A stretch of DNA of 64,000 nt, from assembly GCA_900546275.1 (NCBI GenBank), contig URCH01000003.1, forward strand, positions 37,991 through 101,990. Reading direction: 5' to 3'. Made by a program: the position numbers and the translations under genes. This stretch comes from an uncultured Mycoplasmatota bacterium (GTDB taxonomy: Bacteria; Bacillota_I; Bacilli_A; RF39; UBA660). Below, in pieces: positions 46,160 through 63,624 of the stretch (the first letter of the stretch is position 1; every line of letters begins with the position of its first letter). The notes beneath the pieces are model-generated. The model did not search any database. It saw only the letters and a list, made by a program, of their open reading frames with translations, and was not told where the DNA came from.

Positions 46160-46666
46160 TTAAATGTTTGTATTATATTCAATACATTTTTCTTCTAATA
46201 ATTTAAAATTGCAACACCTTTTTGCAATACTTTCATTTAAAGTACCATTAATATATTTATCATATAACTTTTTAGATCTACCATATAACTTATCATCATT
46301 ACGATTTAACCAAAATATTTGTTCCTTTAACATTTTAGTATATTTTTCTTCAGTTTTAGTTAAACATTCTTTATCTAAATCTAATTTGATAATATTTTTA
46401 TTTGTTACAGGTAACATATTATTAAAGTTAATTGCTCCCAAATCACCATTTGCAATTTTCAAAAAATCTAATGTTGTTTTCATAGTTTTATGTTTTGGTT
46501 TAGGACTTGATAACGGGGCAAAATATTTACAATCATTAACTTCAAATAGTACACCAATAAATGGTCTTAATTCTTTTTTATCATAATTATATGGAACTCT
46601 TTTATCAAATTGTCTTAAATAATCACAATATTTTGAATCCAGTCTAACTAAAATCAAGCTTTCCAT
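46160..46666 (-). CDS. toxN: Type III toxin-antitoxin toxin, ToxN/AbiQ family endoribonuclease
   Basis: Family-typical N-terminus ...YxxYLxxFDKRVP...RPFIGVLFEV...KYFAPLSSPKPKH. Length 168 aa. GAGGGTG ribosome-binding site. Immediately preceded by terminator and tandem repeats. Confidence 0.75.
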   Translation of the reverse strand: MESLILVRLDSKYCDYLRQFDKRVPYNYDKKELRPFIGVLFEVNDCKYFAPLSSPKPKHKTMKTTLDFLKIANGDLGAINFNNMLPVTNKNIIKLDLDKECLTKTEEKYTKMLKEQIFWLNRNDDKLYGRSKKLYDKYINGTLNESIAKRCCNFKLLEEKCIEYNTNI

Positions 46667-46730: not shown

Positions 46731-46733
46731 CTC

Positions 46734-46837
46734 TTTTTTAAGTTCACTGTTATGGCCGGAATCGCCACTTTTTTAAGTTCCTGTTAAAGCCGGAATCGCT
46801 TCTTTTTTAAGTTCCTCTTATAGTGGGAATCACTAGC
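46734..46837 (-). ncRNA. toxI: ToxI-like type III antitoxin RNA: three tandem 34-35-nt repeats
   Basis: Minus-strand units are gctagtgattcccactataagaggaacttaaaaaa, gaagcgattccggctttaacaggaacttaaaaaa and gtggcgattccggccataacagtgaacttaaaaaa. A candidate -10 TATAAT lies on the minus strand at 46871-46866. The units are GC-rich islands in an AT-rich intergenic region. Confidence 0.65.
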
Positions 46838-46994
46838 TTTTTTTGTGCTACTATGTAGCATTATTATTATATGCATAAATGCACAACATAATCACTTATG
46901 TGCCAATAATATACCATAAATATATTAAAATGTCTAGTTTTCTCAAAAAAGTTTTATATTTTTTTATTATATAAAATAAAATTCAAATATGTTT

Positions 46995-47650: not shown

Positions 47651-48649
47651 TTATTTATTTTTTAATATAAAATTATATGAATCTTTACACATTTCTTCAA
47701 TAGTTTTAGTCGTTTTAAAATTTAGCTCTTTTAATGCATAAGATGTATCTGCATAACATGCATCAATATCTCCAGGTCTTCTATTTGTAATTTTATATTT
47801 TACATCTATATTATTTACTTTAGAAAATGCATTTACAAGTTCTAAAACACTGTAACCTTTTCCAGTACCTAAGTTATATGCATCACAAATATTTTCTTTT
47901 AATATTTTTTCTATTGCTTTTATATGTCCATTAGCTAGATCAACAACATGTATGTAATCTCTTACACCTGTTCCATCAATGGTGTTATAATCATTACCAA
48001 ATATATTTAAGCATTCCAATTCTTTGTTAGCTACTTTTACAATATATGGCATTAAATTATTTGGTATATCATTTGGATTTTCTCCAAGTAATCCTGATGG
48101 ATGTGCACCTATAGGATTAAAATATCTAAGTATAGCTATACTCCATGTATTATCTGATTTATATAAATCTCTTAGTATTCCTTCAATCATTAATTTTGTT
48201 GTTCCATATGGGTTAGTTGTTGAAAGTGGAAAATCTTCTTTAATGGGTAATGAATTAGGTTTACCATAAACAGTCGCACTAGATGAAAAAGCTATTTTTT
48301 TGCAATTATATTCATTCATAACTTCTAATAAAGAAAGGGTTGAATCTATATTATTTCTATAATACATAAGTGGTTTTTTTACTGATTCTCCAACAGCTTT
48401 GTATCCAGCAAAATGTATAACGGCATTTATTCGATTTTCACTAAATATTTTATTTAATATTTGCTTATCACAGACATCTCCTTCGTAAAATTTAAAATCT
48501 TTTTTTGTTATTGTTTTTATTTTTTCAATAACATCTTTTTTAGAATTTGAAAAGTTATCTATTACTACAACTTCATAATTATTATTTAAAAGCTCAACAA
48601 CAGTATGGCTTCCAATATATCCAGTTCCACCAGTCACTAATATTTTCAT
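47651..48649 (-). CDS. galE: UDP-glucose 4-epimerase
   Basis: Rossmann motif VTGGTGYIGSH, the YxxxK catalytic dyad region and 332 aa. Confidence 0.9.
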   Translation of the reverse strand: MKILVTGGTGYIGSHTVVELLNNNYEVVVIDNFSNSKKDVIEKIKTITKKDFKFYEGDVCDKQILNKIFSENRINAVIHFAGYKAVGESVKKPLMYYRNNIDSTLSLLEVMNEYNCKKIAFSSSATVYGKPNSLPIKEDFPLSTTNPYGTTKLMIEGILRDLYKSDNTWSIAILRYFNPIGAHPSGLLGENPNDIPNNLMPYIVKVANKELECLNIFGNDYNTIDGTGVRDYIHVVDLANGHIKAIEKILKENICDAYNLGTGKGYSVLELVNAFSKVNNIDVKYKITNRRPGDIDACYADTSYALKELNFKTTKTIEEMCKDSYNFILKNK

Positions 48650-48657
48650 AATACCTC

Positions 48658-49722
48658 CTATAAATTATCAATTTGATCTTTTAAAGTATGAACTTTATTT
48701 AAACTTTCTTTTTTACCAATTATAATTAAATTGTCAGAATCTATACAAAAAATATCTTCAACATCCAATAATACAATCTTTTTATTATTGCAATAAACTA
48801 TATTATTATTTGAATCGATTATTTGAACATTCCCTTTAACAATATTATTATTTTCATCTTTTGGTAGATAACGTTCAATCGAATTCCAAGTACCAATATC
48901 ATCCCAACCAATATTAGTAGGTATTGTATATACATTTTTTGATTTTTCCATAATTGCATAGTCAATTGATATTTTTGTACAATCGTTATATGCCTTATTC
49001 AAAAATTCATAATATTTTGGATTTGAAAAATCTGGTAAATTTATTAGCAAATTATACTCATTTGGTATATTAACTTTACATTCTTCTAGCATATTTTTAA
49101 CATTAAAAATGAACATTCCAGCATTCCACAAATATTTTTTACTTTGATAATATTCATTTGCTAATTCCAAATTTGGTTTTTCAACAAACTTAGAAACCTT
49201 TAATACTTTACTACTGCCTGGTTCAAATTTTATATATCCATAACCAGTTTCAGCTCTCGTAGGTTCTATTCCTATAGTAACAATTGCGTTTGTATTATTA
49301 TTTACAAACTCATTGGCCAAAACTATATCATTTATAAATTTTTCTTCATTTTTTATATAACTGTCTGAAGAAATACAAACAACATTTGCATTTTTATAAA
49401 TGTTCTTAATATATATGGTAGACAGCAAAATACATGGTGCAGTATTCTTAGAACAAGGCTCAGTTATAATATTTAAATCTTTTATATCAGGTATTTGTTT
49501 TTTTATTTTATCTATATAATCATAATTTGTTATTATAAATATTCTATCACTAGGAATCAATTTATTGATTCTTTCATATGTCATTTGCAACATAGATTTT
49601 TCATTTAACAGCGATAAAAATTGTTTTGGATTGTCAGATGTAGACTGAGGCCAAAATCTAGTACCAATCCCACCTGCCATTATTAAGGCACATAACATAC
49701 TATTTCTCCTTCTTTTTAACAA
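48658..49722 (-). CDS. manC: Mannose-1-phosphate guanylyltransferase (NTP-transferase domain only)
   Basis: LIMAGGIGTRFWP nucleotide-binding motif. Length 354 aa. No cupin/PMI domain. Confidence 0.75.
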   Translation of the reverse strand: MLKRRRNSMLCALIMAGGIGTRFWPQSTSDNPKQFLSLLNEKSMLQMTYERINKLIPSDRIFIITNYDYIDKIKKQIPDIKDLNIITEPCSKNTAPCILLSTIYIKNIYKNANVVCISSDSYIKNEEKFINDIVLANEFVNNNTNAIVTIGIEPTRAETGYGYIKFEPGSSKVLKVSKFVEKPNLELANEYYQSKKYLWNAGMFIFNVKNMLEECKVNIPNEYNLLINLPDFSNPKYYEFLNKAYNDCTKISIDYAIMEKSKNVYTIPTNIGWDDIGTWNSIERYLPKDENNNIVKGNVQIIDSNNNIVYCNNKKIVLLDVEDIFCIDSDNLIIIGKKESLNKVHTLKDQIDNL

Positions 49723-50446
49723 ATGATGGTTTTCCGTTTATATATTTAAAGAAACCAAACGAATAAATTATTCTCTTAAATCTTGCTTTATTAAATTGTT
49801 TAAATAGACGATATATTCCTTCTAATCCCAATTTACTGATTTTTTCTGGTGCTCTTTTAATTTTACCAGAAACGAAGTCAACAGTTCCACCACTTCCAAT
49901 AGCAAATTTAACACCTAACTGTGTCAATTCTTTTAAATTATCTCTCATAAAGAATTCCTGTTTTGGAGCACCAAATCCGACAAAAATTATATCTGGTTTT
50001 GACTTTTTTATATGAGACATACAATCATCTACAAATTTTTTAGAAAATGGATAATCTTCATATGAAGGTGAATAGCCATCTGCTTTTATTCCATATTTTT
50101 CCTTTACATTTACTACTGCCTGGGCATTTGAATCTTCTTTTCCCCCCAAGAAGTACAATTTCATGTTATTTTTTTTCGCATATTCACAAAAATCATATAC
50201 AATTTCACTGCCAGATAATTTTTCTACTTTTTTAAATTTCTTATCTTTTAATCTAGCAAATTTTAATGGAACTTGTCCATCTATAGTAGCATAATTAGAA
50301 TTAACAAAATCATACAAATCTTTATTAGTATTTGCCAATCTAATAATCTGTGCATTTAATGTTACAATACACTTAGTTTTTTCATTATCTATTTCAAATA
50401 AATCTTTTTTATTTTTAATATTTATATTTAAATTACAATATTTCAT
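49700..50446 (-). CDS. WecB/TagA/CpsF family (GT26) glycosyltransferase
   Basis: Family-like motifs TIDGQVPLKFARL and FLGGKED. Confidence 0.7.
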   Translation of the reverse strand: MKYCNLNINIKNKKDLFEIDNEKTKCIVTLNAQIIRLANTNKDLYDFVNSNYATIDGQVPLKFARLKDKKFKKVEKLSGSEIVYDFCEYAKKNNMKLYFLGGKEDSNAQAVVNVKEKYGIKADGYSPSYEDYPFSKKFVDDCMSHIKKSKPDIIFVGFGAPKQEFFMRDNLKELTQLGVKFAIGSGGTVDFVSGKIKRAPEKISKLGLEGIYRLFKQFNKARFKRIIYSFGFFKYINGKPSFVKKKEK

Positions 50447-50538
50447 AACTCTATCATAATGAAATTATATTTCATTATACCTCCCTTACCATATAAAAAT
50501 TAAGATTTTTTATACTATAATAATCTTTTCCAATTATA

Positions 50539-51957
50539 TTAAAATCTAAAATATATAAATGGATTAAAATTTGAACTTATTAAATACATAACGCAAACAA
50601 GAAATAACCCCAAATAAACTGCATTTAAAGCATAATTTAATATTGGCTTTTTAATGCATAAATTTTCTATTTTCTTATATATAGGAAACATAAATAAAAT
50701 AGATGGAATAATAAACAAAATTGGAATAATTAAATTATTGCTTGCGAATATTTCAATATAATTAGTAGAAGAAAAATCAAATAATTTTTTTATAAAGTAA
50801 AATACTTCACTTATATTTTCAACTCTAAAAATTACCCAGCCTATAATTATTAATATAATGGAATATAACCAACGTACAACTGAAGGCCACTTATCAATAA
50901 ACTTCTTTAAAAATATTTTTTCTAATATAAGCAAAAAGCAGAAATACAAGCCCCATATAATAAAATTCCAACTAGCGCCGTGCCATAAACCAGTCAAGGC
51001 CCAAACAACTAATAGATTCAAAATCCACCTAAATTTGCTAACCCTATTACCTCCTAATGGAATATACACATAATCCCTAAACCAACTAGAAAGAGAAATA
51101 TGCCATCTTCTCCAAAATTCAGTAATAGATCTTGATATATATGGATAATTAAAGTTTTCCAAAAAATGAAATCCAAAAATTTGACCTAACCCAATTGCCA
51201 TATCACTATATCCACTAAAATCATAATATATTTGCAAAGAATATGCAATAGCACCAAGCCAAATTATTGAACTACCATATCCTGATTGATGTATATATGA
51301 ATTATCAAATATAAAATCAGCAAGTAACGCAACATTATTAGCTAAAATAATTTTTTTAGATAATCCAATTATAAATCTTTTTACTCCAGAGATAATGTCG
51401 TTTAAATTTTCTTTTCTGTTTTCTAATTCGTCTTGTACAGTTTCGTATCTAACAATTGGACCAGCAACTAATTGAGGAAACAAAGTCACATACAATGACA
51501 AATCAAGAATATTTTTTTGTACAGGTATCTTTTTTCTATAGACATCAATTATATATGATAATATTTGAAATGTATAAAAACTTATACCTATAGGTAAAAC
51601 TATCGCTTTAATTGATATATTTAATTTAAATATATTATTAATATTATCAACTATAAAATTAGCGTATTTGAAATATATTAAATTTCCAATAATAAGGATT
51701 AAACTCAATATAAAAGTAATATTTTTCAAAAGAGTTTTATTTTTAGTTTCTAATTTGTCTATTAATATCCCTGCAATATATGAAATTAATATCACTAAAA
51801 ACATTAAAAATATATATTTTGGTTCTCCCCAAGCGTAAAACAATATTGAAAACAACAGTAAAATGAAATTTCTATACCATCTTTTTTTTAATAAAAAATA
51901 TAGAAAAAGTAATAATGGTAAAAAAGCAAATATAAATGTTAAACTACTAAACAGCAT
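50539..51957 (-). CDS. MBOAT family O-acyltransferase (AlgI/DltB-like)
   Basis: Polytopic membrane protein with the conserved His region ...WRRWHISLSSWFRDYVYIPLGGN.... Confidence 0.85.
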   Translation of the reverse strand: MLFSSLTFIFAFLPLLLFLYFLLKKRWYRNFILLLFSILFYAWGEPKYIFLMFLVILISYIAGILIDKLETKNKTLLKNITFILSLILIIGNLIYFKYANFIVDNINNIFKLNISIKAIVLPIGISFYTFQILSYIIDVYRKKIPVQKNILDLSLYVTLFPQLVAGPIVRYETVQDELENRKENLNDIISGVKRFIIGLSKKIILANNVALLADFIFDNSYIHQSGYGSSIIWLGAIAYSLQIYYDFSGYSDMAIGLGQIFGFHFLENFNYPYISRSITEFWRRWHISLSSWFRDYVYIPLGGNRVSKFRWILNLLVVWALTGLWHGASWNFIIWGLYFCFLLILEKIFLKKFIDKWPSVVRWLYSIILIIIGWVIFRVENISEVFYFIKKLFDFSSTNYIEIFASNNLIIPILFIIPSILFMFPIYKKIENLCIKKPILNYALNAVYLGLFLVCVMYLISSNFNPFIYFRF

Positions 51958-51959
51958 TG

Positions 51960-53177
51960 TTATACCTCCATATCAAAATCTTGAGATCTGTAAAAATCAA
52001 TATTTCCAATCAACAAAGTTTTGTTTATATTGTTCTTTTTTATATATTCGAGATAATTAAATTTTTTCCCAAATTGTCTTTCATAATGTCTTAAATCGAT
52101 TGAAAATGTTTTATTGTAATGAGTTGATATCAATTTAAGAATTGCATTATCATAAGATTCGCCTATTATCAAAATATTTTCTTTTGTTGGATTATTATAG
52201 TCAAAAATGATTTCTGCTCCATCTCCTCCATAATATGAGGCATAATTAATACTATTACCAGCGAATTGATTTTGAGAGCCATAATCATCTACTTTTTCAC
52301 CATTCAAATAAGTAATGTGGTCAGGGAAATCAAATACATATGCGCAAAAATCTTCTTTATATATATAACTTGCACCTGTCATACTAGCTTTTGATCCTAA
52401 AAACTTACCAGAACTACATTTTGTATCAATAGGTTTAATAATATTGTCCAAATTTAATATTTTAGCCAATTCGGTATAAGCTTTATATGAGCCTTTATAA
52501 TTCCAATGATGATCAGTTTTATAAAAATAATTTTGAAATTCATTAAAATTATTTATTTGAAATACATTAAAATTACTTTTATTCGATATATTTTCATGTA
52601 TATAATTTGATATATTTGTTTTTTCATTATTTTTAAAATTAATATCAGTATCTTTTTCTATATAATATGTATATACTGGGATTGGACTTTTATTAATTAA
52701 ATTATTAATATTATTAATCCTATAGCTAAATGAAGAATTATCATCAGATAAATATACAGGATCATAAACAAAGTTTCCTTCACATCCAAAAGTAGTTAAA
52801 GCTGAAGTTACTTTAATATAATTATTATTACAATAATCTTTAAGAATTACTTTTGAAAATGTAGCATTTATATAATTAGTAGAAAAATTATAAATCTTTT
52901 TAATTTTTGATGACATTAAAAGTTGATCAGACAAAGCAAGCTCAAACGACTGTTGAAATTCACCTGAATTAATTGTTTTAACTGTTGGCTTAGTAAAATA
53001 ATATGCACTTCTATTTTCATAATTATTTATATTTTTTTTAAAAAACACGAAACTCATTATTCCAACAAATACTATTATTATTAAAAAAAACAAAAACAAA
53101 AAATCATAAAACATACATTTTTTTATGACACAAAAATTAGTACGGTTTTCTTTTATTTTTTTCTTCACAATACCCAC
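51960..53177 (-). CDS. DHHW family protein (MBOAT partner, AlgX/PatB-like)
   Basis: Eponymous motif YKTDHHWNYKGSYKAY. N-terminal signal anchor. Adjacent to MBOAT. Confidence 0.75.
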   Translation of the reverse strand: MGIVKKKIKENRTNFCVIKKCMFYDFLFLFFLIIIVFVGIMSFVFFKKNINNYENRSAYYFTKPTVKTINSGEFQQSFELALSDQLLMSSKIKKIYNFSTNYINATFSKVILKDYCNNNYIKVTSALTTFGCEGNFVYDPVYLSDDNSSFSYRINNINNLINKSPIPVYTYYIEKDTDINFKNNEKTNISNYIHENISNKSNFNVFQINNFNEFQNYFYKTDHHWNYKGSYKAYTELAKILNLDNIIKPIDTKCSSGKFLGSKASMTGASYIYKEDFCAYVFDFPDHITYLNGEKVDDYGSQNQFAGNSINYASYYGGDGAEIIFDYNNPTKENILIIGESYDNAILKLISTHYNKTFSIDLRHYERQFGKKFNYLEYIKKNNINKTLLIGNIDFYRSQDFDMEV

Positions 53178-53237
53178 ATCCTATACACAACCATTATAAC
53201 AAAAAAAATATATATTTAAAATATATATTTTGAATTT

Positions 53238-54194
53238 TTATTTAATAAACCAAATTACTTTTGCAAATAAAGAATTAAAATGTTTTAAATAAAAATTTTT
53301 AAAAGTTATTTTCCTTAAATATTTGTTTTTCTTGTAGTTTGGAAACTTTTTGTTTACATTTTGCCTAGCCAATTCAACACCATATATATACTTTTTTTTA
53401 TCATTTGTTTTAGATAATCCTTTAATCATTGTAGCATATATATGTCTAACATATGAATATTCCAATTCATAATAATACTCATTAAATAAATTATTTTCTT
53501 TATAAAAATTAATCAACCCATTAAAATTATATATATAATCAAATATTTTATCATTAAAAGTACTAGATATTGCTCCTTGTCTTTGAACATATTGATAAAA
53601 AGGTTTATTAATTACTCCAATACTATCTGCATACGGCAAAATTCTATACATAAATTCTACATCTTCATACCAAATTCCTTTTTTAAATTGAAATTTATTT
53701 ATAAGTGATTTCTTGTATATCTTATTCCAAGCAGTAGGATAGATATTTATCATTTTATCTTTTATTTGTTTTTTATTTAGTAAATCTTTTGTTACATTGC
53801 AAGAACAAAACTTTATTTTTTCGTCATAAACATAATTAAGGTCACACATTACAATATCAAAATCAGACGATATAGCTTTTTCATACATAACCTCAAACAT
53901 TTTTTCATCGACATAGTCATCACTATCTACAAATGCAATATACTTACCAGTAGCATACTTCAATCCATAATTTCTAGCATCAGATAATCCCCCATTTTCT
54001 TTTATATAAGATTTTATTAGTTTTGGATATTTTACTTTAAATTCATCGATTATTTGCTGAGAATTATCCTTGGTACCATCATTTACAATTATGATTTCTA
54101 TATCTTTTAATGTTTGATTTACCAAACTATTTAAACATTTTTTTAAATATTTTTCTACATTATATACTGGAACAATTACACTAATCTTTATCAT
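53238..54194 (-). CDS. Family 2 glycosyltransferase
   Basis: SVIVPVYN...VNDGTKD...FVDSDD (DXD) motifs. Confidence 0.85.
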   Translation of the reverse strand: MIKISVIVPVYNVEKYLKKCLNSLVNQTLKDIEIIIVNDGTKDNSQQIIDEFKVKYPKLIKSYIKENGGLSDARNYGLKYATGKYIAFVDSDDYVDEKMFEVMYEKAISSDFDIVMCDLNYVYDEKIKFCSCNVTKDLLNKKQIKDKMINIYPTAWNKIYKKSLINKFQFKKGIWYEDVEFMYRILPYADSIGVINKPFYQYVQRQGAISSTFNDKIFDYIYNFNGLINFYKENNLFNEYYYELEYSYVRHIYATMIKGLSKTNDKKKYIYGVELARQNVNKKFPNYKKNKYLRKITFKNFYLKHFNSLFAKVIWFIK

Positions 54195-55692
54195 CTAAAA
54201 CACCACTATCTTTTCTTATATCAACTAAAATCATACCACAAACCATGCTCATTATAAACATATATAACCATGAATCAAATGAATTACCACTTAAGTAAGA
54301 AACAGCAAAAGCTAAAACTATTGTTACTGGAAGTAATGCTTTTTCGAGTGTCATATTAATAAAAGCCTTTTTAAAACCTAAAAATGCAATTATTAGATAT
54401 GGAAGTAAGTAAATAATTATACCAAAAATTCCAAGTGTATAATATTGCCACAATATATCATTTTCTAAATAAACCTTTGAATTATGTAAATTAGTTCTTC
54501 CTATACCAAATAATTCATCAAAATTAGCTTTATTCAAAATAGAAACACGTTTTATAATTAATGCCTGTATTTTCCTTCCGTCATCTTTCTTTTCAAATTC
54601 TAACTTTCCATAATTCAACCAAAATTCAACATCGCTTTCACATTTATAATTATCGCTGAAATACACCAGTTGGTAACCATATATATTATACTTCTTTCTA
54701 ATTAGGTTGCATACATTTACTTTTTCTTCATCATTCATATTTTCATCATAATCAATTTTTATAGATGGATCATTATTATTTTCAATGTTAGCATTACCAG
54801 CATTATTACCAGCATATTTATTTCTATTTGCGCCAGGAGAAAAAAACATTAAAACAACACTAACAAACAAAACAATAAAATATTTTATAAAAAAATTAAT
54901 ACTAAACTTTTGTTTTTTCATAAAAATCGAAAGGAAATAGAATAAAACATACCCCGCTTCTATTATTAACCAAATGTAAGTTCCGACTCTAGTCCCCAAC
55001 ATCATACTGCAGATGTTTAATAAGGTTATAATAAAAAGTAATTTAGAATTTTTATATTTGAAATAACAATAATTAACTAAAGAAATCATAATCGCTAATG
55101 TAGCGCCTAAAGGATTGGCCTGATAAAATATACCTTTAACTCCTATTTTTTCGTAAGGAACAGTAACAAATATTCCTTTAAACCAATCTAAAATACTGTA
55201 CATAGAATATTCTTGCTTACCACCATAAGATAGAATTGAAAATCCAAATAAACTAGGAATTATAATCATAAGTATTATTTCAATAGCAAGAATAGTAATT
55301 ACTATTTTGTTTATTTTAAAATTTTTGAGCACATAATATGAAATAAAAATAAATAATAAAGGAACAAACATTTTCATCAAATATGATATTTCTCCCATTA
55401 ATGAAAATGTTTTTGAAAGTGAAACTACATTAAAATTATTTGAAACTGATATATGTAAAATTGAATATATTACATTAATAAAAACAAACAGAAAAAAATA
55501 TTTATATTTATTATCCCATCTTTTAAAGCATAATACGAACAAAATTAATACTAAAAATGTCCTTATTATTGTTGAAATAGACAAACCAAAGAATTTATAA
55601 TTGTCCATATATAAATAATATATTTCTAAAAATGGATGTAATACTATAAATATAATATATAAATATAAAATTAATTTATTTTCTTTTTTCAT
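54181..55692 (-). CDS. Wzy/O-antigen ligase-like polytopic membrane protein (putative polymerase)
   Basis: More than ten TM helices with a large periplasmic loop. Sits between glycosyltransferases in the locus. Confidence 0.5.
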   Translation of the reverse strand: MKKENKLILYLYIIFIVLHPFLEIYYLYMDNYKFFGLSISTIIRTFLVLILFVLCFKRWDNKYKYFFLFVFINVIYSILHISVSNNFNVVSLSKTFSLMGEISYLMKMFVPLLFIFISYYVLKNFKINKIVITILAIEIILMIIIPSLFGFSILSYGGKQEYSMYSILDWFKGIFVTVPYEKIGVKGIFYQANPLGATLAIMISLVNYCYFKYKNSKLLFIITLLNICSMMLGTRVGTYIWLIIEAGYVLFYFLSIFMKKQKFSINFFIKYFIVLFVSVVLMFFSPGANRNKYAGNNAGNANIENNNDPSIKIDYDENMNDEEKVNVCNLIRKKYNIYGYQLVYFSDNYKCESDVEFWLNYGKLEFEKKDDGRKIQALIIKRVSILNKANFDELFGIGRTNLHNSKVYLENDILWQYYTLGIFGIIIYLLPYLIIAFLGFKKAFINMTLEKALLPVTIVLAFAVSYLSGNSFDSWLYMFIMSMVCGMILVDIRKDSGVLDDKD

Positions 55693-55701
55693 ATTTTCAC
55701 C

Positions 55702-56865
55702 TTACTTTATTAATGAATAAAATTCATTCATCTTAACATCATTTTTACAACTATAATTTTCTAAATTTTTTTCAAATTTTTTCATTTTGTCTTTTTCAGT
55801 CAATACTTTTTTTAATCCTTGATAAATAGATTCTTCATCGTTATTTACAATAATACCATATTTTCCATCATCTAACAAATATTTTGTTCCAGCAACTTCT
55901 GTTGTAAAAACTGGTTTGCCTAACACAAGCGACTCCGAAATAACAGTTGGCATTCCCTCGTATCTAGAAACTAGTAAAGTAAAGTCACCTTTTAGAAAAT
56001 ACGGATATGGATTATTTCTTTTTCCCAATAGAATTAAACTATTTTCAACATGATTTTTGCTAATTTCGTTCAATAACATTTCTTTATCTATTCCATCCCC
56101 AATAATATATACTTTAAATTTAAAACCATCATCAATTAGTTTTTTATGAATTGGTACATATCTATCATAACCTTTTTGATAATCAAGTCTACCTACTGAA
56201 ATAATATTAATTACATCATTATCAAAATCCTCATCAGGAATTGTTTCTTTTGACTTTAATATAATTTCACTTTCATTTATAATATTTAAAATCACTTTAG
56301 GTTCATTATCTAAATTATAATATTTTCTAAAAGCGATTGCTGCTTCTTTTGATACGGAAACATTAGTATTTATTAAACTCAAAGCTTTTTTCATTGTACG
56401 CAAATATTTTGAAGATGAATTAATAGTTGTAACATCAACATGATTCCAATTTATTTTATTAGCTGAGTCTCCAAAAGCACAAAACAAAGTACAAAAACCA
56501 TCATTATAAGAAATTTCATTATCATATTTTCTAAATAATGTTTTTTTTCTTTCTTTAATAATTTTATATTTAATTAATCCAGTTTTAATAAGAAAAGAAA
56601 AATATATTTTTTTTAATGCTTTTAAATACATTTTATTTTTAATTAATTGCTTAAATGAGGAATCTACAACATCAAATGTTTTCGTTCCCTTAATTATATT
56701 TACATCCTTTGGAATTAAATTTTTCATATCACCATGATAATGTAAAACAAGCAAATCGATTTCATAATTTGAATAATCTATTTTGGAAAGTAAATTAGAA
56801 AGGACCTTTGAAACTCCACCCATAACTAGACCATCCATCACAAATAAAATATTCTTTTTTTTCAT
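55702..56865 (-). CDS. Family 4 (GT-B) glycosyltransferase
   Basis: C-terminal SRYEGMPTVISESLVLGKPVFTTEVAG (EX7E region). Confidence 0.8.
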   Translation of the reverse strand: MKKKNILFVMDGLVMGGVSKVLSNLLSKIDYSNYEIDLLVLHYHGDMKNLIPKDVNIIKGTKTFDVVDSSFKQLIKNKMYLKALKKIYFSFLIKTGLIKYKIIKERKKTLFRKYDNEISYNDGFCTLFCAFGDSANKINWNHVDVTTINSSSKYLRTMKKALSLINTNVSVSKEAAIAFRKYYNLDNEPKVILNIINESEIILKSKETIPDEDFDNDVINIISVGRLDYQKGYDRYVPIHKKLIDDGFKFKVYIIGDGIDKEMLLNEISKNHVENSLILLGKRNNPYPYFLKGDFTLLVSRYEGMPTVISESLVLGKPVFTTEVAGTKYLLDDGKYGIIVNNDEESIYQGLKKVLTEKDKMKKFEKNLENYSCKNDVKMNEFYSLIK

Positions 56866-57815
56866 AACTTACCTCCAAAAATAATTCTTAATAATTTTAT
56901 CTTATTATGAATAACTAAATAACACATGATTTTAAATTTTATTTTTTGCTTTTTAAAATACTTATTTTTATACCATAATGGAAATTTTTCTAACAAAATA
57001 TTCCTATTTTTCTTTATTAGTTCATCAGTATTGTTAAACTTTAAAAATCTCAATGTAGCACCATGTATTAAGTGTTCCAGATACATAAATTCTAATTCTT
57101 TATCAAAAGAGTTTGTATATTTTTTTGTATTATTTTCCAAATATTCCAAAGCAATATAAATATTTTCCAATTTTTCATTATATTTTTTTTGACGCATTGA
57201 GGAACCACCACGTATAATATAATTATATAGTGGAACTTTAATGTAGCCTATCTTATCAGTATAAAATGTAGTTAGTGGAATTGTAGCTAAATCTTCATAT
57301 ATATACCCTACCAAAAACTTGAAATTCTGTTGCTTCAAAATACTAGTTTTAAAAATTTTATTCCATGGGCAAGGATTTGATAAATAATAATTTATTTTTA
57401 TATTATCAGAATAAGGTTGGATAGAAAACTCACGTTTTTTTAAATCATCAATAACAGAGTAATAATCAAAACATAATATATCATCTTTAGTTTCACTTAT
57501 TTTTTCTACAAGTAAAGTTACTGCATCATCCTCTATATAATCATCACTATCTACAAACATCAAATAATCGCCTGTTGAAACATCAATACCAATATTTCTG
57601 CAATCGGCTTGTCCACTATTTTTTTTATCAATCAATACTAATCTATCATCTTTATGCTTATACTCATTGATTATCTGTAACGAATTATCAGTAGATCCAT
57701 CATTAATAATAATTAATTCGATATTTTTATATTTTTGATTTAATATACTATCCAAACATTTTTTTAAGTACTTTGAAGTATTATATACGGGTACTATAAT
57801 ACTAACCTTCACCAT
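56862..57815 (-). CDS. Family 2 glycosyltransferase
   Basis: VSIIVPVYN, INDGSTD and FVDSDD motifs. Confidence 0.85.
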   Translation of the reverse strand: MVKVSIIVPVYNTSKYLKKCLDSILNQKYKNIELIIINDGSTDNSLQIINEYKHKDDRLVLIDKKNSGQADCRNIGIDVSTGDYLMFVDSDDYIEDDAVTLLVEKISETKDDILCFDYYSVIDDLKKREFSIQPYSDNIKINYYLSNPCPWNKIFKTSILKQQNFKFLVGYIYEDLATIPLTTFYTDKIGYIKVPLYNYIIRGGSSMRQKKYNEKLENIYIALEYLENNTKKYTNSFDKELEFMYLEHLIHGATLRFLKFNNTDELIKKNRNILLEKFPLWYKNKYFKKQKIKFKIMCYLVIHNKIKLLRIIFGGKL

Positions 57816-57834
57816 AATATCATCCCAACTTTCA

Positions 57835-58785
57835 TTATTTTGAAGTAATAATCAAATATAATTTATAATTAAAAAACAAACAAATCTTTTTTATGAATCG
57901 TTTAATACTGTTTTGAGGAATATTTTTATATATTTTATTTTTCTTTAATAATTTGACATAATCTTTTTTTGTTTGACCAGAAAGTATATTAGTTTTTCTA
58001 ACTACAGAATCAGTTAAAAAAATCTTAACAATATCCTTTTCTTCATTTAATCCTTTTATTTGATTAATAATTGAAACTTCATTCAAATATAATTCTAAAA
58101 AATCAAATGCCTTTTTTCTATTTTTTTGTTCATCATTACAATTGATAATACTACCATCACGTTGAACATAATTCAAACCAATATAATCAATTGAAATTAT
58201 TTTTTCTGCTTTCATGATAATAAATGGAGTTAATCCAAAATCTTCATGATACTTTCCCTTAGAATACATAAACCTATTTTTGATAAAGAAGTCCCTTTTA
58301 TAAGCATATAACCATGCAGGTTCTATCATTTCATCAGTAAATATTGATTTAATTGCATTCAATTTTAATTCATTGCAAAAAGGTTTGCTTATATACTTAT
58401 GTAAAACTTTTCCATGTAAATTTACAGTTTGACAACTAAATTTTACAAGATCTGGTTCATTATTTTTCTTGATCTTAGCATTTATCTTTTCCAATAATCT
58501 GCTTTCAAAGTAATCATCTGAATCCAAAAATAAAATATAATCACCATTTGCTTTTTTTACTCCATAATTTCTTGCATCAGATAATCCACCATTTGTTTTT
58601 ATAAAAGAAATAAATCTTTTATCTTTAGACACAAACTTATCAATTATTTTTTGACTACCATCTTTAGAGCCATCGTTTACAATAATAACTTCATAATTAC
58701 CATATGTTTGATTTTCGACGCTTGATAGACACTTATCAATATAATCTTGTACATTATATACTGGTATAATAATGCTAAATTTCAT
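57835..58785 (-). CDS. Family 2 glycosyltransferase
   Basis: FSIIIPVYN, VNDGSKD and FLDSDD motifs. Confidence 0.85.
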   Translation of the reverse strand: MKFSIIIPVYNVQDYIDKCLSSVENQTYGNYEVIIVNDGSKDGSQKIIDKFVSKDKRFISFIKTNGGLSDARNYGVKKANGDYILFLDSDDYFESRLLEKINAKIKKNNEPDLVKFSCQTVNLHGKVLHKYISKPFCNELKLNAIKSIFTDEMIEPAWLYAYKRDFFIKNRFMYSKGKYHEDFGLTPFIIMKAEKIISIDYIGLNYVQRDGSIINCNDEQKNRKKAFDFLELYLNEVSIINQIKGLNEEKDIVKIFLTDSVVRKTNILSGQTKKDYVKLLKKNKIYKNIPQNSIKRFIKKICLFFNYKLYLIITSK

Positions 58786-60373
58786 GATATGTCTCCAAAA
58801 TTTTGTTATATCTTGAATTAGTCAACAATTTAATTTTTTGTTTTTTTGTAATTTCTGTCAAACCCTCTAGAATTGCTTCGTTCTTTTCATGTTCTTTATT
58901 TAATATATTATAATAATCTCCTTCATTATAACCATCAAAGCCTGCCAAAAAAACCTCGTTAGACATATTCAAATCAAATAATTTTAATAACATAAGTAAT
59001 GCATTATCAGACACAATTGAATTTCCGTTAAGATAATTTGAATATTCAATAATATAACAATTATCTAAATTTTTATAATTAATGTTAGATGTAATTAACA
59101 AAGGTTTGTTATAAACTTTATTTTCGCCAAATCTCTTGTTACTATTTATAAAAATCATATCAACATCATAATCTTCAGGAACAAAATTTACACTTATTAC
59201 AAAAGGAGATTCATTATGTATAAATCTTTTGATTTTTTCACTTTCATCTAAAATTCTTTTTCCTGGACCTAAAAGCAATACTTTTTTATTTCCTATTATC
59301 TCTCTTAGTTTTTTTATATCCTCAAAATCATTTACTTTTGTTTCTTGATAATCTATATATTTTTTTTCTATATATTCTTTATCAAAAATCATTTTTTTAT
59401 CTTCAGGAATACTTTTTAATATCTTACCTATTGTACTAATTGATAAAGTGTTCTTTTCAACTAAATATGAAGCATAATTTGGATGGCAACAATTAATAGC
59501 TGAAAAATAATATGGTAAAGAATAACCCCAACTATTTTTTCTATAAATAGAATATAAAACATCATCTATTATTTCAAATAAATAATCTGTATTATACTTA
59601 TAATTTTCTATTTTATTTAGTTGTCCTAAAAAAAGCTCAGTGTTAAGATTTCCAGCACCTCTCCCCATACCATAAATTGAAGAATCAATTATCATTTTAT
59701 CATTTCCATATTTTTTCAATAGCATCAAAGCATTAGAATAAGATAATTGCAAATTATTATGGGAATGAAATCCAATATTTATATTGCTATTTAAATTGTT
59801 CTTTGTTAAATCATAATATCTGACTAAATCTTCTGCATCCATTGATCCAAAACTATCTACAATATAAAATGCAAATGGATCAATTTCATTAGCTAGCATT
59901 ATTAATTGAACAAATTCCTCATCACTATAACTTAATGAAAGCATAGGTTGAAGAAAAACCTTATATCCTTTATCCTTTATTTGTTTTGATAACTTTAGTG
60001 CTTCAAATCTATCTTTTTTGTGAAAAGCTATTCTTATTCCACCTATTTTATTGTCTGCTTTCAACGATAAATCTGATACATTATATTCACCAAAATTCAT
60101 CATACAAACAGCTAGTCCCTTATAATCAGAAGGTATAAAACTATTAAATTCTTCTATAGTATTAAATTTAGTATGATTATCATCATATGTTTTTTTATTT
60201 GAAATAAATCCACATTCTATTATATCTATATTTGCTTTAGATAATTTATCAATTATTTTTTTTATATTTTCTTTTCCAAAATTCCAATCATTTATATATC
60301 CGCCATCTCTTAATGTACAATCCAAAACTTTAATATTATCCATTTTTCCTCCTTCTAAAATTATAAATTGCAT
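58775..60373 (-). CDS. HMGL-like (pyruvate carboxyltransferase / DmpG-type class II aldolase) domain fused to a C-terminal uncharacterised alpha/beta domain
   Basis: N-terminal motif VLDCTLRDGGY and metal-binding motif GFHSHNNLQL of the HMGL-like TIM barrel. The C-terminal ~170 aa (KKVLLLGPGK...FVISVN...) could be a Maf/DUF115-like Rossmann domain, but this is unverified. Confidence 0.55.
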   Translation of the reverse strand: MQFIILEGGKMDNIKVLDCTLRDGGYINDWNFGKENIKKIIDKLSKANIDIIECGFISNKKTYDDNHTKFNTIEEFNSFIPSDYKGLAVCMMNFGEYNVSDLSLKADNKIGGIRIAFHKKDRFEALKLSKQIKDKGYKVFLQPMLSLSYSDEEFVQLIMLANEIDPFAFYIVDSFGSMDAEDLVRYYDLTKNNLNSNINIGFHSHNNLQLSYSNALMLLKKYGNDKMIIDSSIYGMGRGAGNLNTELFLGQLNKIENYKYNTDYLFEIIDDVLYSIYRKNSWGYSLPYYFSAINCCHPNYASYLVEKNTLSISTIGKILKSIPEDKKMIFDKEYIEKKYIDYQETKVNDFEDIKKLREIIGNKKVLLLGPGKRILDESEKIKRFIHNESPFVISVNFVPEDYDVDMIFINSNKRFGENKVYNKPLLITSNINYKNLDNCYIIEYSNYLNGNSIVSDNALLMLLKLFDLNMSNEVFLAGFDGYNEGDYYNILNKEHEKNEAILEGLTEITKKQKIKLLTNSRYNKILETYHEI

Positions 60374-60995
60374 TAGCTATTTCAAAATCATCTGCTTCAT
60401 CTATATCAATTGCTTCTACTTTTGACACCACTTTCAAATAAGGATTATTACCTATCCTTCTATTCAATTCTAAAATAGTTTGTTTTGAATATACATAAAA
60501 TCCACTTGTTTCTGAATATATAAATGGTAAATCCTGAGTTCTAGGAATAGCAGATAAATTATAATTAAGAGGTTCACCATTTTTCCATAAAAATTCTTGA
60601 AGTAATTGAACTGAAAATGAAGAATCATATTCACCACTCAAAACGTGCTCAATGCCATCAGATATACTACTTTCAGTAATAAATGGAGCAGTAACATGAG
60701 CTAAAACATATAAATCTGAGTCAACTTTATTTGCAAAACTTTGTAAAATTTCATTCATTTTTGTAGTTGAACTATCTAGATTTTCACTTCTTTTTAAAAA
60801 TTTTATTCCATCAGGAATATAATCTTTTATTGTTTCGTTACTACAATAAACGTATATTTCATCTATTTTTTTTACTTTCTTTAGTGTATTTAACAGATAT
60901 GTACATAAAGGCTCTCCATTGTCAAATTTTTTAATATTCTTATTTTTTAGTCGCTCATTATTAAGTTTTATAGGGACTACTGCAACTACTTTCAT
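60336..60995 (-). CDS. Cytidylyltransferase (NeuA/KdsB/PseF CTP_transf_3 family)
   Basis: N-terminal AVVPIKLNNERLKNKN matches the acylneuraminate cytidylyltransferase signature (IPAR.GSK...NKN). Confidence 0.7.
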   Translation of the reverse strand: MKVVAVVPIKLNNERLKNKNIKKFDNGEPLCTYLLNTLKKVKKIDEIYVYCSNETIKDYIPDGIKFLKRSENLDSSTTKMNEILQSFANKVDSDLYVLAHVTAPFITESSISDGIEHVLSGEYDSSFSVQLLQEFLWKNGEPLNYNLSAIPRTQDLPFIYSETSGFYVYSKQTILELNRRIGNNPYLKVVSKVEAIDIDEADDFEIANAIYNFRRRKNG

Positions 60996-62086
60996 ATTTT
61001 TTCCTCCAAATCATTTAACATTTTACTTAGTTGTTTTTTATCAGAAACAACTTTTATATTGTTATCATTTCTACAAATATTTTGAAAAAATTTTTCAAAA
61101 TATTTTTCATGCATTATCAAAAATTTTCCTTTTAAAAGTTTATACAATAAAATAATCTTAGCATTATTATCAAAAATTGTTTTTGTATTAACTGCTGCTG
61201 AAGAACTTATTGTAAATAGAACTTTATCATCAAGATTGTTATTAATGCAAAATATTTCCCAAGAAACATTAGTATTTAAGAGTTTAATTTTAGAATTAGG
61301 AAATTGTTTTGTATTTCTTGGATGTCTTTTAACAATAAAATTTTCGTAACCAACACATTTTGCAATATCATCTATTAAATTCATATACTCATCAATATCA
61401 TCTATAAACTCGAAAGCTTCTTCGAAAAAAATATATTTTTCTTTGATAGTTAAACCTTTAAAATCAAAAGCATTGTTAATACTAGTAACTAAAGATTTAT
61501 TATTAACGTCGATTAATTCAATATTCTTTATATCTCTATTTGAATCTCCAACAAAAAGTTTTGGTCTATAAAAATACATATCATAATCAATATAACTTAA
61601 ATCACAATTATATATAAATTTAATTAATTTTGTATATTTTCCTTTTGTATATACTTTAGGTAATTCTCTTAAATAACTTATAACACCCTCTTCATATAAA
61701 TGGAATTTTATATTTTTATTTCTTTTACATTGATACTTATATATTTCATAAAAAATTTCATTATTATTAAAGAAAAATATTTCATCATATACGTCCAATT
61801 TCTCACCTAACATAATTTTAACATTTTTTGTATTATTAAAAATTTGTTTTATATTAGATGTTTTACTATTCTTATTTTTTGGTAACTTCGAACTATCTGC
61901 ATAATATACTTTATTAAAAACATCATTTAATTTTTTATTTTTATATAAATAATTCAAATATTTTGTTTTATCACTAACCATAATATCAACAACATCTATA
62001 TCTGATAAAAGTGTTTTTCTTAAATTTATAGAATTTAACAATTGATATAAAGTATGAACTATCATTAAAATTCTTTTATTTTTCAT
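60992..62086 (-). CDS. Putative GT52-like (lipooligosaccharide sialyltransferase Lst-type) glycosyltransferase
   Basis: The segment IVKRHPRNTKQF...LNTNVSWEIF resembles, from memory, the VAPHPRQTYG...LNSPYVIEDYI region of Neisseria Lst. It is adjacent to the cytidylyltransferase. Confidence 0.4.
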   Translation of the reverse strand: MKNKRILMIVHTLYQLLNSINLRKTLLSDIDVVDIMVSDKTKYLNYLYKNKKLNDVFNKVYYADSSKLPKNKNSKTSNIKQIFNNTKNVKIMLGEKLDVYDEIFFFNNNEIFYEIYKYQCKRNKNIKFHLYEEGVISYLRELPKVYTKGKYTKLIKFIYNCDLSYIDYDMYFYRPKLFVGDSNRDIKNIELIDVNNKSLVTSINNAFDFKGLTIKEKYIFFEEAFEFIDDIDEYMNLIDDIAKCVGYENFIVKRHPRNTKQFPNSKIKLLNTNVSWEIFCINNNLDDKVLFTISSSAAVNTKTIFDNNAKIILLYKLLKGKFLIMHEKYFEKFFQNICRNDNNIKVVSDKKQLSKMLNDLEEKI

Positions 62087-63624
62087 TATACTACCACCTT
62101 TTTCTTAAAAATTTTACTTTTTATCATAATTATAAATTGATCTCTTTCTGTTTTGTTAAATAAAACAATAAAGTTTATTATTAATCCAATTACGCCAGAA
62201 ATTCCACATATAGCAATTAAGTAAAGCCAATTTGTTATTTTGAAAATACTACCAATAAAAGTAAAACAAACTATTAATAATACTGAAGAAAAAAGACATT
62301 TAAAAATGGTAGGATAAAAAGTTTTTTTAGATATATTTAAGCACTTGGAAGCATATATAGGTGTAAATGTCAAATTTTTAATAGTTCCAACCAATATACT
62401 AATTCCTGCAATAGCATATATACCTAAATTAGTAAATTTTAAAACAAAAAATAATAATAATACATTCAAGAAACCTAAACATATAGTAACAATTGAATTT
62501 ACTTTTAATTTATTGGTAATTGTAAAAGTATCAAATAAACTATTTATTGCAGCTGAAACAATTCCTCCGGCAATTGTTATAACTGTTAAATGATATATTA
62601 ATAATACATTTTGATTAGGTAACCACAAATTAATAAATTGATATCCAAATGCAATCAATCCACAAATAACAATATTAGAAAAAAAAGTTGTTAATTTCAT
62701 TGAAAAAATCATTTCTTTTACAAAAGCGGAAATATTATTTTTTGCATAGTGAATTGTAAGTTGAGGTTGAAACACAGCAGTAACAGTACAAATTAAGTTA
62801 TTTACAATAGTAGATAATGTTTTTGCTACAGCTAACTGTCCCATAGCAACAGAATCTATAAAAATATTACTTAATAACAAGTCCAAGCCATCAGATAATA
62901 TTTGACCCAATTTCGTAATTGTATTCCAAATCCCTGAAGCAATAATTTGAACTACTTTTTTAAAATCATAATATATTTTTTTTATCTTAATATTTGGTAA
63001 TAATTTTTTAGTATATATAATATTAAAAATCAAAACATATAATGAGGAAATACAAGTTGCAACACCTATAAATGAAACTGAGGTTCCTAAAAATGAAAAG
63101 AACAAAATTAAAAATACAACCCTTATAATATTGGACTCTAAATTTCTAAGTGAACTGATATCCAATCTATTTGCAGCATATGTCGAAACGGAAAACACCG
63201 AGTTCATAATTCCTATAAAAAAATTTATAAAAACCAATAAAAATAGGATTTTAACGTCATTTGTAATAAATGTAGGAATTGAAATAAACTTATCCAAAAA
63301 TATTACACATATTATTGATGGAATAAGTAAAATTAAAGATAAAAAAGCATTTGCTGCAAAAATAGATGTAAAATATTTGTTTGCCTCTTCAATATTATCT
63401 TGATGTATATATATTGTAATATATCTCCCAGCCATAGAATTTAAAGCGATTGTAAGCAATGAAGCATAATTAACAAAATTATTTGCTAATGAAATAAAAC
63501 CGTATGCTTCAACTCCTACATTTTCAGTAACATAAGGGGTCAAGAAAAAGCTTATTCCCAAATTAATAACAAACATCATCAATGATAAAAACATATTTAT
63601 TGATAATCTTTTTTTATTAGTCAT
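62086..63624 (-). CDS. MOP-family oligosaccharide flippase (Wzx-like)
   Basis: 512 aa, ~14 TM helices and a typical Wzx N-terminus. Confidence 0.8.
   Translation of the reverse strand: MTNKKRLSINMFLSLMMFVINLGISFFLTPYVTENVGVEAYGFISLANNFVNYASLLTIALNSMAGRYITIYIHQDNIEEANKYFTSIFAANAFLSLILLIPSIICVIFLDKFISIPTFITNDVKILFLLVFINFFIGIMNSVFSVSTYAANRLDISSLRNLESNIIRVVFLILFFSFLGTSVSFIGVATCISSLYVLIFNIIYTKKLLPNIKIKKIYYDFKKVVQIIASGIWNTITKLGQILSDGLDLLLSNIFIDSVAMGQLAVAKTLSTIVNNLICTVTAVFQPQLTIHYAKNNISAFVKEMIFSMKLTTFFSNIVICGLIAFGYQFINLWLPNQNVLLIYHLTVITIAGGIVSAAINSLFDTFTITNKLKVNSIVTICLGFLNVLLLFFVLKFTNLGIYAIAGISILVGTIKNLTFTPIYASKCLNISKKTFYPTIFKCLFSSVLLIVCFTFIGSIFKITNWLYLIAICGISGVIGLIINFIVLFNKTERDQFIIMIKSKIFKKKVVV

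Follow-up and report, generated by a model that had tools for sequence, protein, structure and literature searches.

Sialic-acid-like and Kdo-like (3-deoxy-D-manno-oct-2-ulosonate-like) surface sugars of bacteria shape immune recognition, phage attachment and colonisation, and are usually predicted in genomes from homologues of the synthases NeuB and KdsA. The closest described routes to such sugars are the NeuB/NeuA/sialyltransferase modules (NeuB-NeuA-NeuS) for the cytidine monophosphate (CMP)-activated acids CMP-Neu5Ac, CMP-Leg and CMP-Pse, the KdsA-KdsC-KdsB pathway to Kdo and the Kdn-9-phosphate pathway of Bacteroides. Aldolases that use pyruvate are best described in the DmpG group (DmpG, BphI, HsaF), and a biosynthetic relative, RhiG, reportedly condenses phosphonoacetaldehyde with a pyruvate-derived unit. 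PMC8942020 gives RhiG as an HMGL-like aldolase that follows phosphonopyruvate decarboxylase in rhizocticin biosynthesis. The window analysed here is a 64,000-nucleotide (nt) stretch from an uncultured Mycoplasmatota bacterium (GCA_900546275.1, contig URCH01000003.1, positions 37,991 to 101,990) with a G+C content of about 24%. Three adjacent open reading frames (ORFs) on its minus strand, at 58775-60373, 60336-60995 and 60992-62086, were confirmed where an original prediction from the sequence had placed them. They encode an aldolase joined to a second domain (hereafter the fusion), a cytidylyltransferase and a sialyltransferase-like protein. With moderate confidence, we read this cassette as a donor-sugar module, independent of phosphoenolpyruvate (PEP), that makes, activates and transfers a 3-deoxy-2-ulosonic (sialic-acid-like or Kdo-like) acid without NeuB or KdsA.

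Proteins encoded by the cassette

The fusion ORF (532 amino acids (aa) as an ORF) begins with a class II metal-dependent pyruvate aldolase of the DmpG type (HMGL-like), made up of a TIM barrel and a helical subdomain (ORF residues 11-345, 59339..60343). The HMGL-like family PF00682 was matched at 67.4 bits (Pfam cut-off 29). The top NCBIfam relatives were DmpG-type 4-hydroxy-2-oxovalerate aldolases (NF006049, E 2.4e-27; TIGR03217, E 8.5e-25), with isopropylmalate, citramalate and homocitrate synthases at E 6e-10 or worse; in bits, the DmpG type reached 95.9 versus 38.5 for LeuA/CimA. The best match in the PDB was 3dxi ('N-terminal domain of a putative aldolase BVU_2661 from Bacteroides vulgatus', E 1e-29), an unpublished structural-genomics entry that is the sole structure for the fusion family, and other matches were DmpG-type aldolases at about 1e-13 to 1e-10 and CimA at 3e-4. 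An AlphaFold (AF2) model of the fusion was built from 30 homologues (predicted local distance difference test (pLDDT) 86.7) and compared with the PDB using Foldseek. DmpG-type aldolases occupied ranks 2-11 and 13, one methylthioalkylmalate synthase chain occupied rank 12, and other Claisen enzymes ranked lower. Residues R22 and D23 of the LDCTLRDGGY motif (residues 17-26, 60296-60325) and H203 and H205 of the HSHNN metal motif (residues 203-207, 59753-59767) were invariant among the 30 homologues, and in the alignment with 8ih7 these motifs coincided with the site at which DmpG-type enzymes bind metal and pyruvate. The DmpG/HMGL-like aldolase that had been proposed from the DCTLRDGG and HSHN motifs was thereby borne out, and DmpG-type enzymes ranked ahead of LeuA, CimA, HCS and HMG-CoA lyase in profiles, PDB matches and Foldseek, where the original prediction had allowed for an enzyme that clusters with LeuA/CimA. 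No acylating acetaldehyde dehydrogenase (DmpF-type) was found beside the fusion and no amino-acid pathway gene in the locus, whose genes all belong to other families. The real start of the fusion is almost certainly M11 (ATG at 60343, giving 522 aa), since an AGGAGG site lies 6 nt upstream, the ATG overlaps the cytidylyltransferase stop codon (8 nt overlap, ATGGATAA), and all homologue N-termini and a 522-aa database gene call agree with it.

Beyond the aldolase, about 190 residues (ORF residues 346-532 plus stop, 58775..59338) form an extra alpha/beta domain in the AF2 model. Its presence had been noted before, but it had been left unassigned, with a comparison to DUF115 proposed. The isolated domain matched no Pfam family at E <= 10, PF01973 included, and Foldseek of the whole fusion model against the PDB returned TIM-barrel matches only and nothing on this domain. 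When the C-terminal alignment was compared by hhalign with stand-alone PF01973 (MptE-like) proteins of related loci, homology was found at 91.9% probability (E 6.9e-7), with GPGK(R/S) paired with GNGPS and LAGFDG paired with LLGVDH. A marginal hidden Markov model (HMM) match to 8sd5 lay over the same two motifs (in the window, GPGKR at 59255-59269 and LAGFDGY at 58928-58948), and the closest solved structure of the domain was an ATP-dependent pyrophosphokinase. Because of this fold and profile-level homology, the domain was assigned to the MptE/DUF115-like alpha/beta nucleotide-binding fold, though without a Pfam match. The glycine loop G-x-G-P-S is altered in it to (A/G)-P-G-(K/S)-(S/R). The aldolase and C-terminal halves were never found apart in 80 proteins from 78 loci.

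The 219-aa protein encoded at 60336..60995 is a predicted CMP-ulosonic acid synthetase and appears translationally coupled to both neighbours. CTP_transf_3 (PF02348) was matched at 71.7 bits (Pfam cut-off 22.6). Among NCBIfam models, PseF scored highest (66.5 bits, cut-off 205.7) and KdsB models scored 19-38 bits (cut-offs 155-281). Its nearest solved relatives were the CMP-sialic acid synthetases 9t4z (E 3e-10) and 1qwj (E 1e-7), then KdsB 2y6p, and 6ifd was also among the PDB matches. These profiles and matches place it in the CMP-ulosonate synthetase family, which agrees with its earlier description as a NeuA/KdsB/PseF-family cytidylyltransferase.

The third protein (364 aa, 60992..62086) itself matched no Pfam or NCBIfam model, PF07388 giving no match even at E <= 10. 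A PDB sequence search with its family gave no match either, so it was placed by fold comparison only. Four relatives were returned by a word-indexed search and 2,586 representatives by an exhaustive profile search; among 40 aligned family members, 22 matched PF07388 (alpha-2,8-polysialyltransferase, best E 3.5e-16) and one matched GT52. The AF2 model (pLDDT 92) has a glycosyltransferase (GT)-B fold whose closest structures are sialyltransferases, with a GT38 polysialyltransferase as the best match and a fold nearer to GT38 and GT80 than to GT52. In 40 relatives, K253 never varies, and conservation of H255-P256-R257 is 90% or higher (KRHPR motif, 61316-61330). Y131-E-E-G134 is present (61685-61696), with G134 at least 90% conserved in the same relatives. 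We take K253/HPR and YEEG to be the HP and D/E-D/E-G motifs common to GT38, GT52 and GT80. The protein had been described as a GT52-like sialyltransferase with an HPR segment: its sialyltransferase-like character is upheld by the GT-B model and the PF07388 matches of its family, and the HPR segment stands, but GT52 (PF07922) was neither a Pfam match nor the closest structure, and on the model GT38-like would be the better label.

Search for a NeuB- or KdsA-type synthase

The NeuB query (N. meningitidis) matched PDB 1xuu over its full length (E 3.7e-237) and was sensitive enough to pick up PseI and SpsE, at about 1e-45. A KdsA query (E. coli) was taken from NC_000913.3. Both were run by phmmer (threshold E <= 1e-3) against 7,603 six-frame translation pieces representing the window and 88 fetched loci, and no NeuB- or KdsA-type synthase was matched, in keeping with the earlier remark that none was visible. 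For 78 related loci from many phyla, this result applies to the 10 kb around the fusion gene. A canonical synthase just past the window end had also been allowed for. The 10 kb beyond that end were read from identical human-gut contigs (GCA_964325785.1, GCA_902474385.1 and ENA metagenomes) and held no NeuB or KdsA homologue. The first genes of the locus there are a WecA-like one (Glycos_transf_4) and the GT4 gene whose 3' end lies in the window; what comes before them is unrelated and encodes ProRS as well as dockerin- and cadherin-like proteins. This flank leaves no room for a hidden synthase.

Related loci and their gene neighbourhoods

For the fusion family, 8,000 candidates were scored (pass level E 1e-5). 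At least 7,978 protein clusters passed, and the 120 best were all 522-554 aa long. Among 600 pattern matches (one genome per species), at least 590 relatives were confirmed by tblastn, many of them from human and animal gut. The groups that bear the fusion comprise Clostridia, Bacilli, Bacteroidales, Fusobacterium, Melainabacteria, Treponema, Helicobacteraceae, Alphaproteobacteria and Acholeplasmataceae. The 90%-identity cluster of one 531-aa fusion (P0070) also holds 330-340-aa Ruminococcus bromii proteins named as sugar kinase or 2-dehydro-3-deoxygluconokinase, which is probably a clustering artefact from an adjacent PfkB gene.

ORFs were called and neighbours clustered in 78 loci, 43 of them with full 10-kb flanks, and HMMs were built for the recurrent clusters. 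A CTP_transf_3 gene lies directly upstream (-1) of the fusion in 59 of the 78 loci, soil Bacillus and Paenibacillus included, and is present in 67. The cytidylyltransferase and fusion pairing is repeated by database gene calls in Paenibacillus, Roseburia and a third genome (GCA_052307155.1). Since the pair is kept across phyla, the aldolase is not a stray insertion. A stand-alone GT38-like, 'HP-long' polysialyltransferase-like or MptE-like gene (PF01973, with a weak match to the Kdo transferase WaaZ) is present in 56 of the 78 loci, and a stand-alone sialyltransferase-like or MptE-like gene in 32 of the 43 with full flanks. Nearly all of these genes are on the strand of the fusion, at a median distance of 1.2-2.7 kb from it. 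CMP-nonulosonic acids and CMP-Kdo are the reported donors of Maf-type MptE-like transferases (bioRxiv 10.1101/2020.06.03.131540; PMC11339370). Further partners are a tight HAD_2 phosphatase family at +1 (21 loci), a KdsC/Kdn-9-phosphate-phosphatase-family HAD (6 loci; TIGR01670 137 bits, cut-off 107) and a PfkB protein resembling 2-keto-3-deoxygluconate (KDG) or KDGal kinases (5 loci). By family assignment, the recurrent partners (CTP_transf_3, transferases, HAD and KDG-kinase-like proteins) belong to 2-keto-3-deoxy sugar acid chemistry and transfer from CMP donors. Two unannotated clusters often accompany the cassette and frequently adjoin each other: c5 (about 520 aa, with a long extension at its C-terminus and a segment bearing a polysialyltransferase-like HP motif; 27 loci, for example L037 6868-8433) and c7 (a large HAD-containing protein of about 690 aa with a weak HAD domain; 18 loci, for example L046 2992-5058).

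Cytidylyltransferase or CDP-sugar genes adjoin the fusion in all but a few loci, and these are not always CMP-ulosonate genes. Five loci place the fusion amid a subset of RfbF, RfbG, RfbH, a YerE-like thiamine pyrophosphate (TPP) enzyme that is acetolactate-synthase-like, SDR, HAD, a GtrA-like membrane protein and a PgfS/ArnC-like GT2 (L069 6702-18166; L078 5911-16099; L084 7575-17973; L083; L088). L069 and L078 hold most of the RfbFGH-type set, and L088 holds only the TPP enzyme and the GT2. This arrangement suggests a second, CDP-sugar-linked use of the fusion, possibly in a branched-chain sugar pathway. A gene of the TagD-like (glycerol-3-phosphate cytidylyltransferase) family replaces CTP_transf_3 at -1 or -2 in two further loci (L023 9546-9992; L039 8486-8929), and L030, L036 and L049 are without CTP_transf_3 and show neither pattern. 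Cluster c40, found at -1 in loci that have no cytidylyltransferase, was considered as a divergent cytidylyltransferase and ruled out (hhalign 0.1%); its sequence rather suggests a membrane protein of the GtrA type.

Proposed pathway and alternative explanations

In the pathway that we propose, the DmpG-type domain would bind pyruvate at its Arg-Asp...His-x-His metal site, and the pyruvate enolate would attack the aldehyde of an aldose or aldose phosphate to give a 4-hydroxy-2-oxo acid, that is, a 3-deoxy-2-ulosonic acid. The MptE-like domain would assist beside the aldol reaction in a nucleotide-dependent way, and its likeliest activity is that of an ATP-dependent enzyme of the kinase or pyrophosphokinase type that readies the aldose substrate. 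We infer that it acts just before the aldol step because fusions usually join consecutive steps, its best structural relative is an ATP-dependent pyrophosphokinase, and phosphatases recur beside the fusion. In many relatives, a dedicated HAD phosphatase would strip the product phosphate and so pull the reversible pyruvate aldol reaction forward. A sequence of phosphorylation, condensation and dephosphorylation, whose order is analogous to that of the mammalian pathway of GNE kinase, NANS and NANP, would make up for the driving force that PEP provides and pyruvate does not. The free acid would then be turned into a CMP-glycoside by the CTP_transf_3 enzyme, and the GT38-like GT-B enzyme would move it from the CMP donor to an undecaprenyl-linked repeat unit, both roles following from family membership; the repeat unit would be flipped by Wzx and polymerised by Wzy. 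The earlier suggestion that a pyruvate-dependent aldolase sits in the place of the synthase and opens an unconventional route to an ulosonic acid is supported to this extent. Extending it to a widespread, undescribed PEP-independent CMP-ulosonate pathway, in which the fusion replaces NeuB/KdsA and the reaction is driven by adding phosphate to the sugar partner and removing it again, is tentative and falls somewhat short of probable. The kinase role of the MptE-like domain, with the phosphorylation and dephosphorylation attached to it, is the weakest part of the proposal.

Several observations weigh against the donor-sugar module. No cassette-type HAD phosphatase was found in the window locus with the cassette HAD HMM, which leaves the phosphorylation and dephosphorylation scheme incomplete here, and pyruvate aldol condensations are thermodynamically weak for biosynthesis. 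The fusion scores far under the equivalog cut-offs of every named NCBIfam enzyme (87.6 bits versus 286 for TIGR03217; 95.9 versus 229 for NF006049). The His that follows TLRDG-x in DmpG and BphI, which we take to be the catalytic His21 of DmpG, is an invariant Tyr26 in the family ('tlrdggy' versus 'tlrdgmh'), so that the acid/base chemistry would differ from that of DmpG/BphI. Together, the scores and the Tyr indicate a distinct subfamily of DmpG-like pyruvate aldolases and not an orthologue. The CTP_transf_3 gene is missing from 10 of the 43 loci with full flanks, and the minority CDP-sugar and TagD-like contexts fit an enzyme that acts on cytidine-nucleotide-linked substrates. The absence of NeuB and KdsA holds for the window, its flank and the 88 loci, the rest of the organism's genome not having been searched. 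Finally, we infer the enzymatic activity of the fusion, the role of its C-terminal domain and the identity of its sugar.

These minority contexts are the main support for an explanation in which the fusion is a tailoring enzyme on a cytidine-nucleotide-linked sugar. The MptE-like domain would hold the CMP or CDP portion, and the aldolase would attach a three-carbon unit from pyruvate to the bound sugar at a keto or aldehyde group, so that an acidic sugar with a branch or a longer chain results. All the contexts concerned handle cytidine nucleotides (67 of the 78 loci have CTP_transf_3; elsewhere there are the CDP-4-keto-3,6-dideoxyhexose genes RfbF/RfbG/RfbH together with a YerE-like TPP enzyme and SDR, or a TagD-like cytidylyltransferase), and MptE/DUF115 is a nucleotide-binding fold whose enzymes release a nucleoside monophosphate leaving group. 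A nucleotide-binding module fused to a catalytic barrel is also what an enzyme that modifies nucleotide sugars would need. In the majority of loci, however, the window included, no other gene would supply an acid for CTP_transf_3, and the KdsC-type phosphatases and KDG-kinase-like genes of related loci indicate free acid, or acid phosphate, intermediates. To our knowledge, there is no earlier case of a DmpG-type aldolase with a nucleotide sugar as its substrate, and we consider this explanation unlikely.

A second alternative gives the C-terminal domain a different function, that of a Maf/GT42-type transferase that uses the CMP-acid, so that the fusion would carry out both the opening and the closing step of the pathway, and adding a second residue or lengthening an oligomer would fall to the GT38-like enzyme. 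The LAGFDGY motif is presumably similar to the segment G-I-D-F-Y in CstII, a GT42 enzyme. The hhalign match to stand-alone PF01973 neighbours, which are presumed transferases, and four full-length loci that have a cytidylyltransferase but no stand-alone sialyltransferase-like gene within 10 kb point the same way. A built-in transferase would nevertheless be redundant in the 32 of 43 full-flank loci where a sialyltransferase-like or MptE-like gene exists besides the fusion. Among solved structures, a pyrophosphokinase and not a transferase comes closest, the G-x-G-P-S loop is altered, and the domain is retained in minority loci that have no CMP-synthetase of any kind, all of which makes this function improbable.

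It is very improbable that the cytidylyltransferase and transferase use sialic acid or Kdo scavenged from host or diet, as could be imagined for a gut bacterium and as scavengers such as Haemophilus influenzae do with NeuA and a sialyltransferase but no NeuB, the fusion then being catabolic, unrelated or a Claisen-type (LeuA/CimA-like) enzyme for another substituent, because the aldolase adjoins and is coupled to the cytidylyltransferase in 59 of 78 loci, including those of soil Bacillus and Paenibacillus, the locus holds no transporter or lyase genes, the profiles and PDB matches prefer the DmpG type to LeuA/CimA (95.9 versus 38.5 bits; E 1e-13 versus 3e-4), and neither an acetaldehyde dehydrogenase partner nor amino-acid pathway genes are nearby.

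If the donor-sugar module is what the cassette encodes, its product could be an acidic sugar that has gone unrecognised in the glycans of Lachnospiraceae, Ruminococcaceae, Bacteroidales, Bacillus and Paenibacillus. Surveys for sialic-acid-like sugars that rely on NeuB would miss the cassette, leaving a class of acidic glycans invisible to genome mining. The fusion would also be a new biocatalyst for ulosonic acid synthesis, and the function of the structural-genomics orphan 3dxi would be explained.

Organisation of the locus and neighbouring genes

The cassette is part of a tightly packed minus-strand operon that runs from past position 64000 down to about 47651. Adjacent genes overlap by 1 to 11 nt, an arrangement that fits translational coupling. 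Directly upstream of the cassette, a Wzx-type flippase (512 aa, 62086..63624, minus strand; PF01943 E 4e-6, slightly under the cut-off) overlaps the transferase start by 1 nt, and this gene order is repeated in the identical gut-metagenome contigs. The flippase is preceded, at the upstream end within the window, by the 3' end of a GT4 gene. Downstream of the cassette, the rest of the Wzx/Wzy-type polysaccharide locus (47651..58785, minus strand) was assigned by Pfam scans. In order of transcription it encodes GT2, GT2, GT4, a Wzy-like polymerase, GT2, a DHHW/AlgX-like protein, an MBOAT O-acyltransferase, a WecG/TagA-type GT, a ManC-like nucleotidyltransferase and a GalE-like epimerase/dehydratase. 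No NeuB, KdsA, HAD or PEP-mutase-type enzyme was found among these genes. The MBOAT acyltransferase and DHHW/AlgX-like SGNH protein form a pair (50539-53177, minus strand) that is likely to O-acetylate the polysaccharide in the manner of AlgI/AlgJ-X or DltB/DltD. A phosphonate pathway of the FrbC or RhiG type was rejected for the window: each gene of the locus was assigned, and there was no PEP mutase or decarboxylase.

Outside the locus, a HAD gene of the window (42330-43025, between uvrC and mutL) was considered as the cassette phosphatase and rejected on finding no match to the cassette HAD HMM. A pilin-like N_methyl protein is encoded at 39241-40332. Just beyond the downstream end of the locus lies a ToxN toxin gene (46160-46666, minus strand; PF13958, E 4e-49), and immediately before the gene stand 3.2 copies of a 34-nt tandem repeat (46733-46843). 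Gene and repeat have the predicted layout of a type III (ToxIN-like) toxin-antitoxin or abortive-infection system in which the repeat RNA would be the antitoxin. On the other side, past the window end in the same organism, genes for surface proteins of a dockerin- and SH3-containing and of a cadherin-like kind (L005 2666-6267) lie immediately upstream of the locus.

Comparison with described systems

Full-text literature searches returned no description of a cassette that combines an HMGL aldolase with a cytidylyltransferase. Public annotation of the fusion is generic ('aldolase catalytic domain-containing protein', '4-hydroxy 2-oxovalerate aldolase', 'HMG-CoA lyase'), and for the cassette it goes no further than 'aldolase catalytic domain-containing protein' and a generic cytidylyltransferase.

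Archaeal MptE (6-hydroxymethyl-dihydropterin pyrophosphokinase), the Maf flagellin glycosyltransferases and WaaZ belong to PF01973/DUF115. The C-terminal domain of the fusion differs from them in having no direct Pfam match, in its altered glycine loop and in always being joined to an aldolase. RhiG offers a precedent for a DmpG-like HMGL enzyme in biosynthesis, but it works in a phosphonate pathway with a PEP mutase and has neither cytidylyltransferase nor sialyltransferase partners nor an MptE-like fusion. DmpG, BphI and HsaF are the best named relatives of the fusion and share with it the TIM barrel, the R-D...H-x-H metal and pyruvate site and the helical subdomain. They are catabolic and paired with an acylating aldehyde dehydrogenase, whereas the cassette stands in a biosynthetic context and lacks that partner, and the fusion has Tyr for the catalytic His and the extra MptE-like domain.

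The KdsA-KdsC-KdsB and Bacteroides Kdn-9-phosphate pathways run, as would the proposed one, from condensation through dephosphorylation to CMP activation, and in some related loci a HAD of the KdsC/Kdn-9-phosphate-phosphatase family adjoins the fusion. Unlike them, the cassette has no KdsA (DAHP_synth_1-type), the window locus has no phosphatase, and the predicted donor of C1-C3 is pyruvate and not PEP. The resemblance to NeuB/NeuA/sialyltransferase modules lies in a CTP_transf_3 gene beside that of a GT-B transferase with HP and D/E-D/E-G motifs, likewise within a surface polysaccharide locus. The differences are the lack of a PEP-dependent PF03102-type synthase (in the window, its flank and the 88 loci), a cytidylyltransferase far under the PseF, NeuA and KdsB equivalog cut-offs and, instead of the synthase, the fusion of a metal-dependent pyruvate aldolase to an MptE-like domain. 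We read the cassette as nucleotide-activated ulosonic acid biosynthesis with a different synthase architecture.

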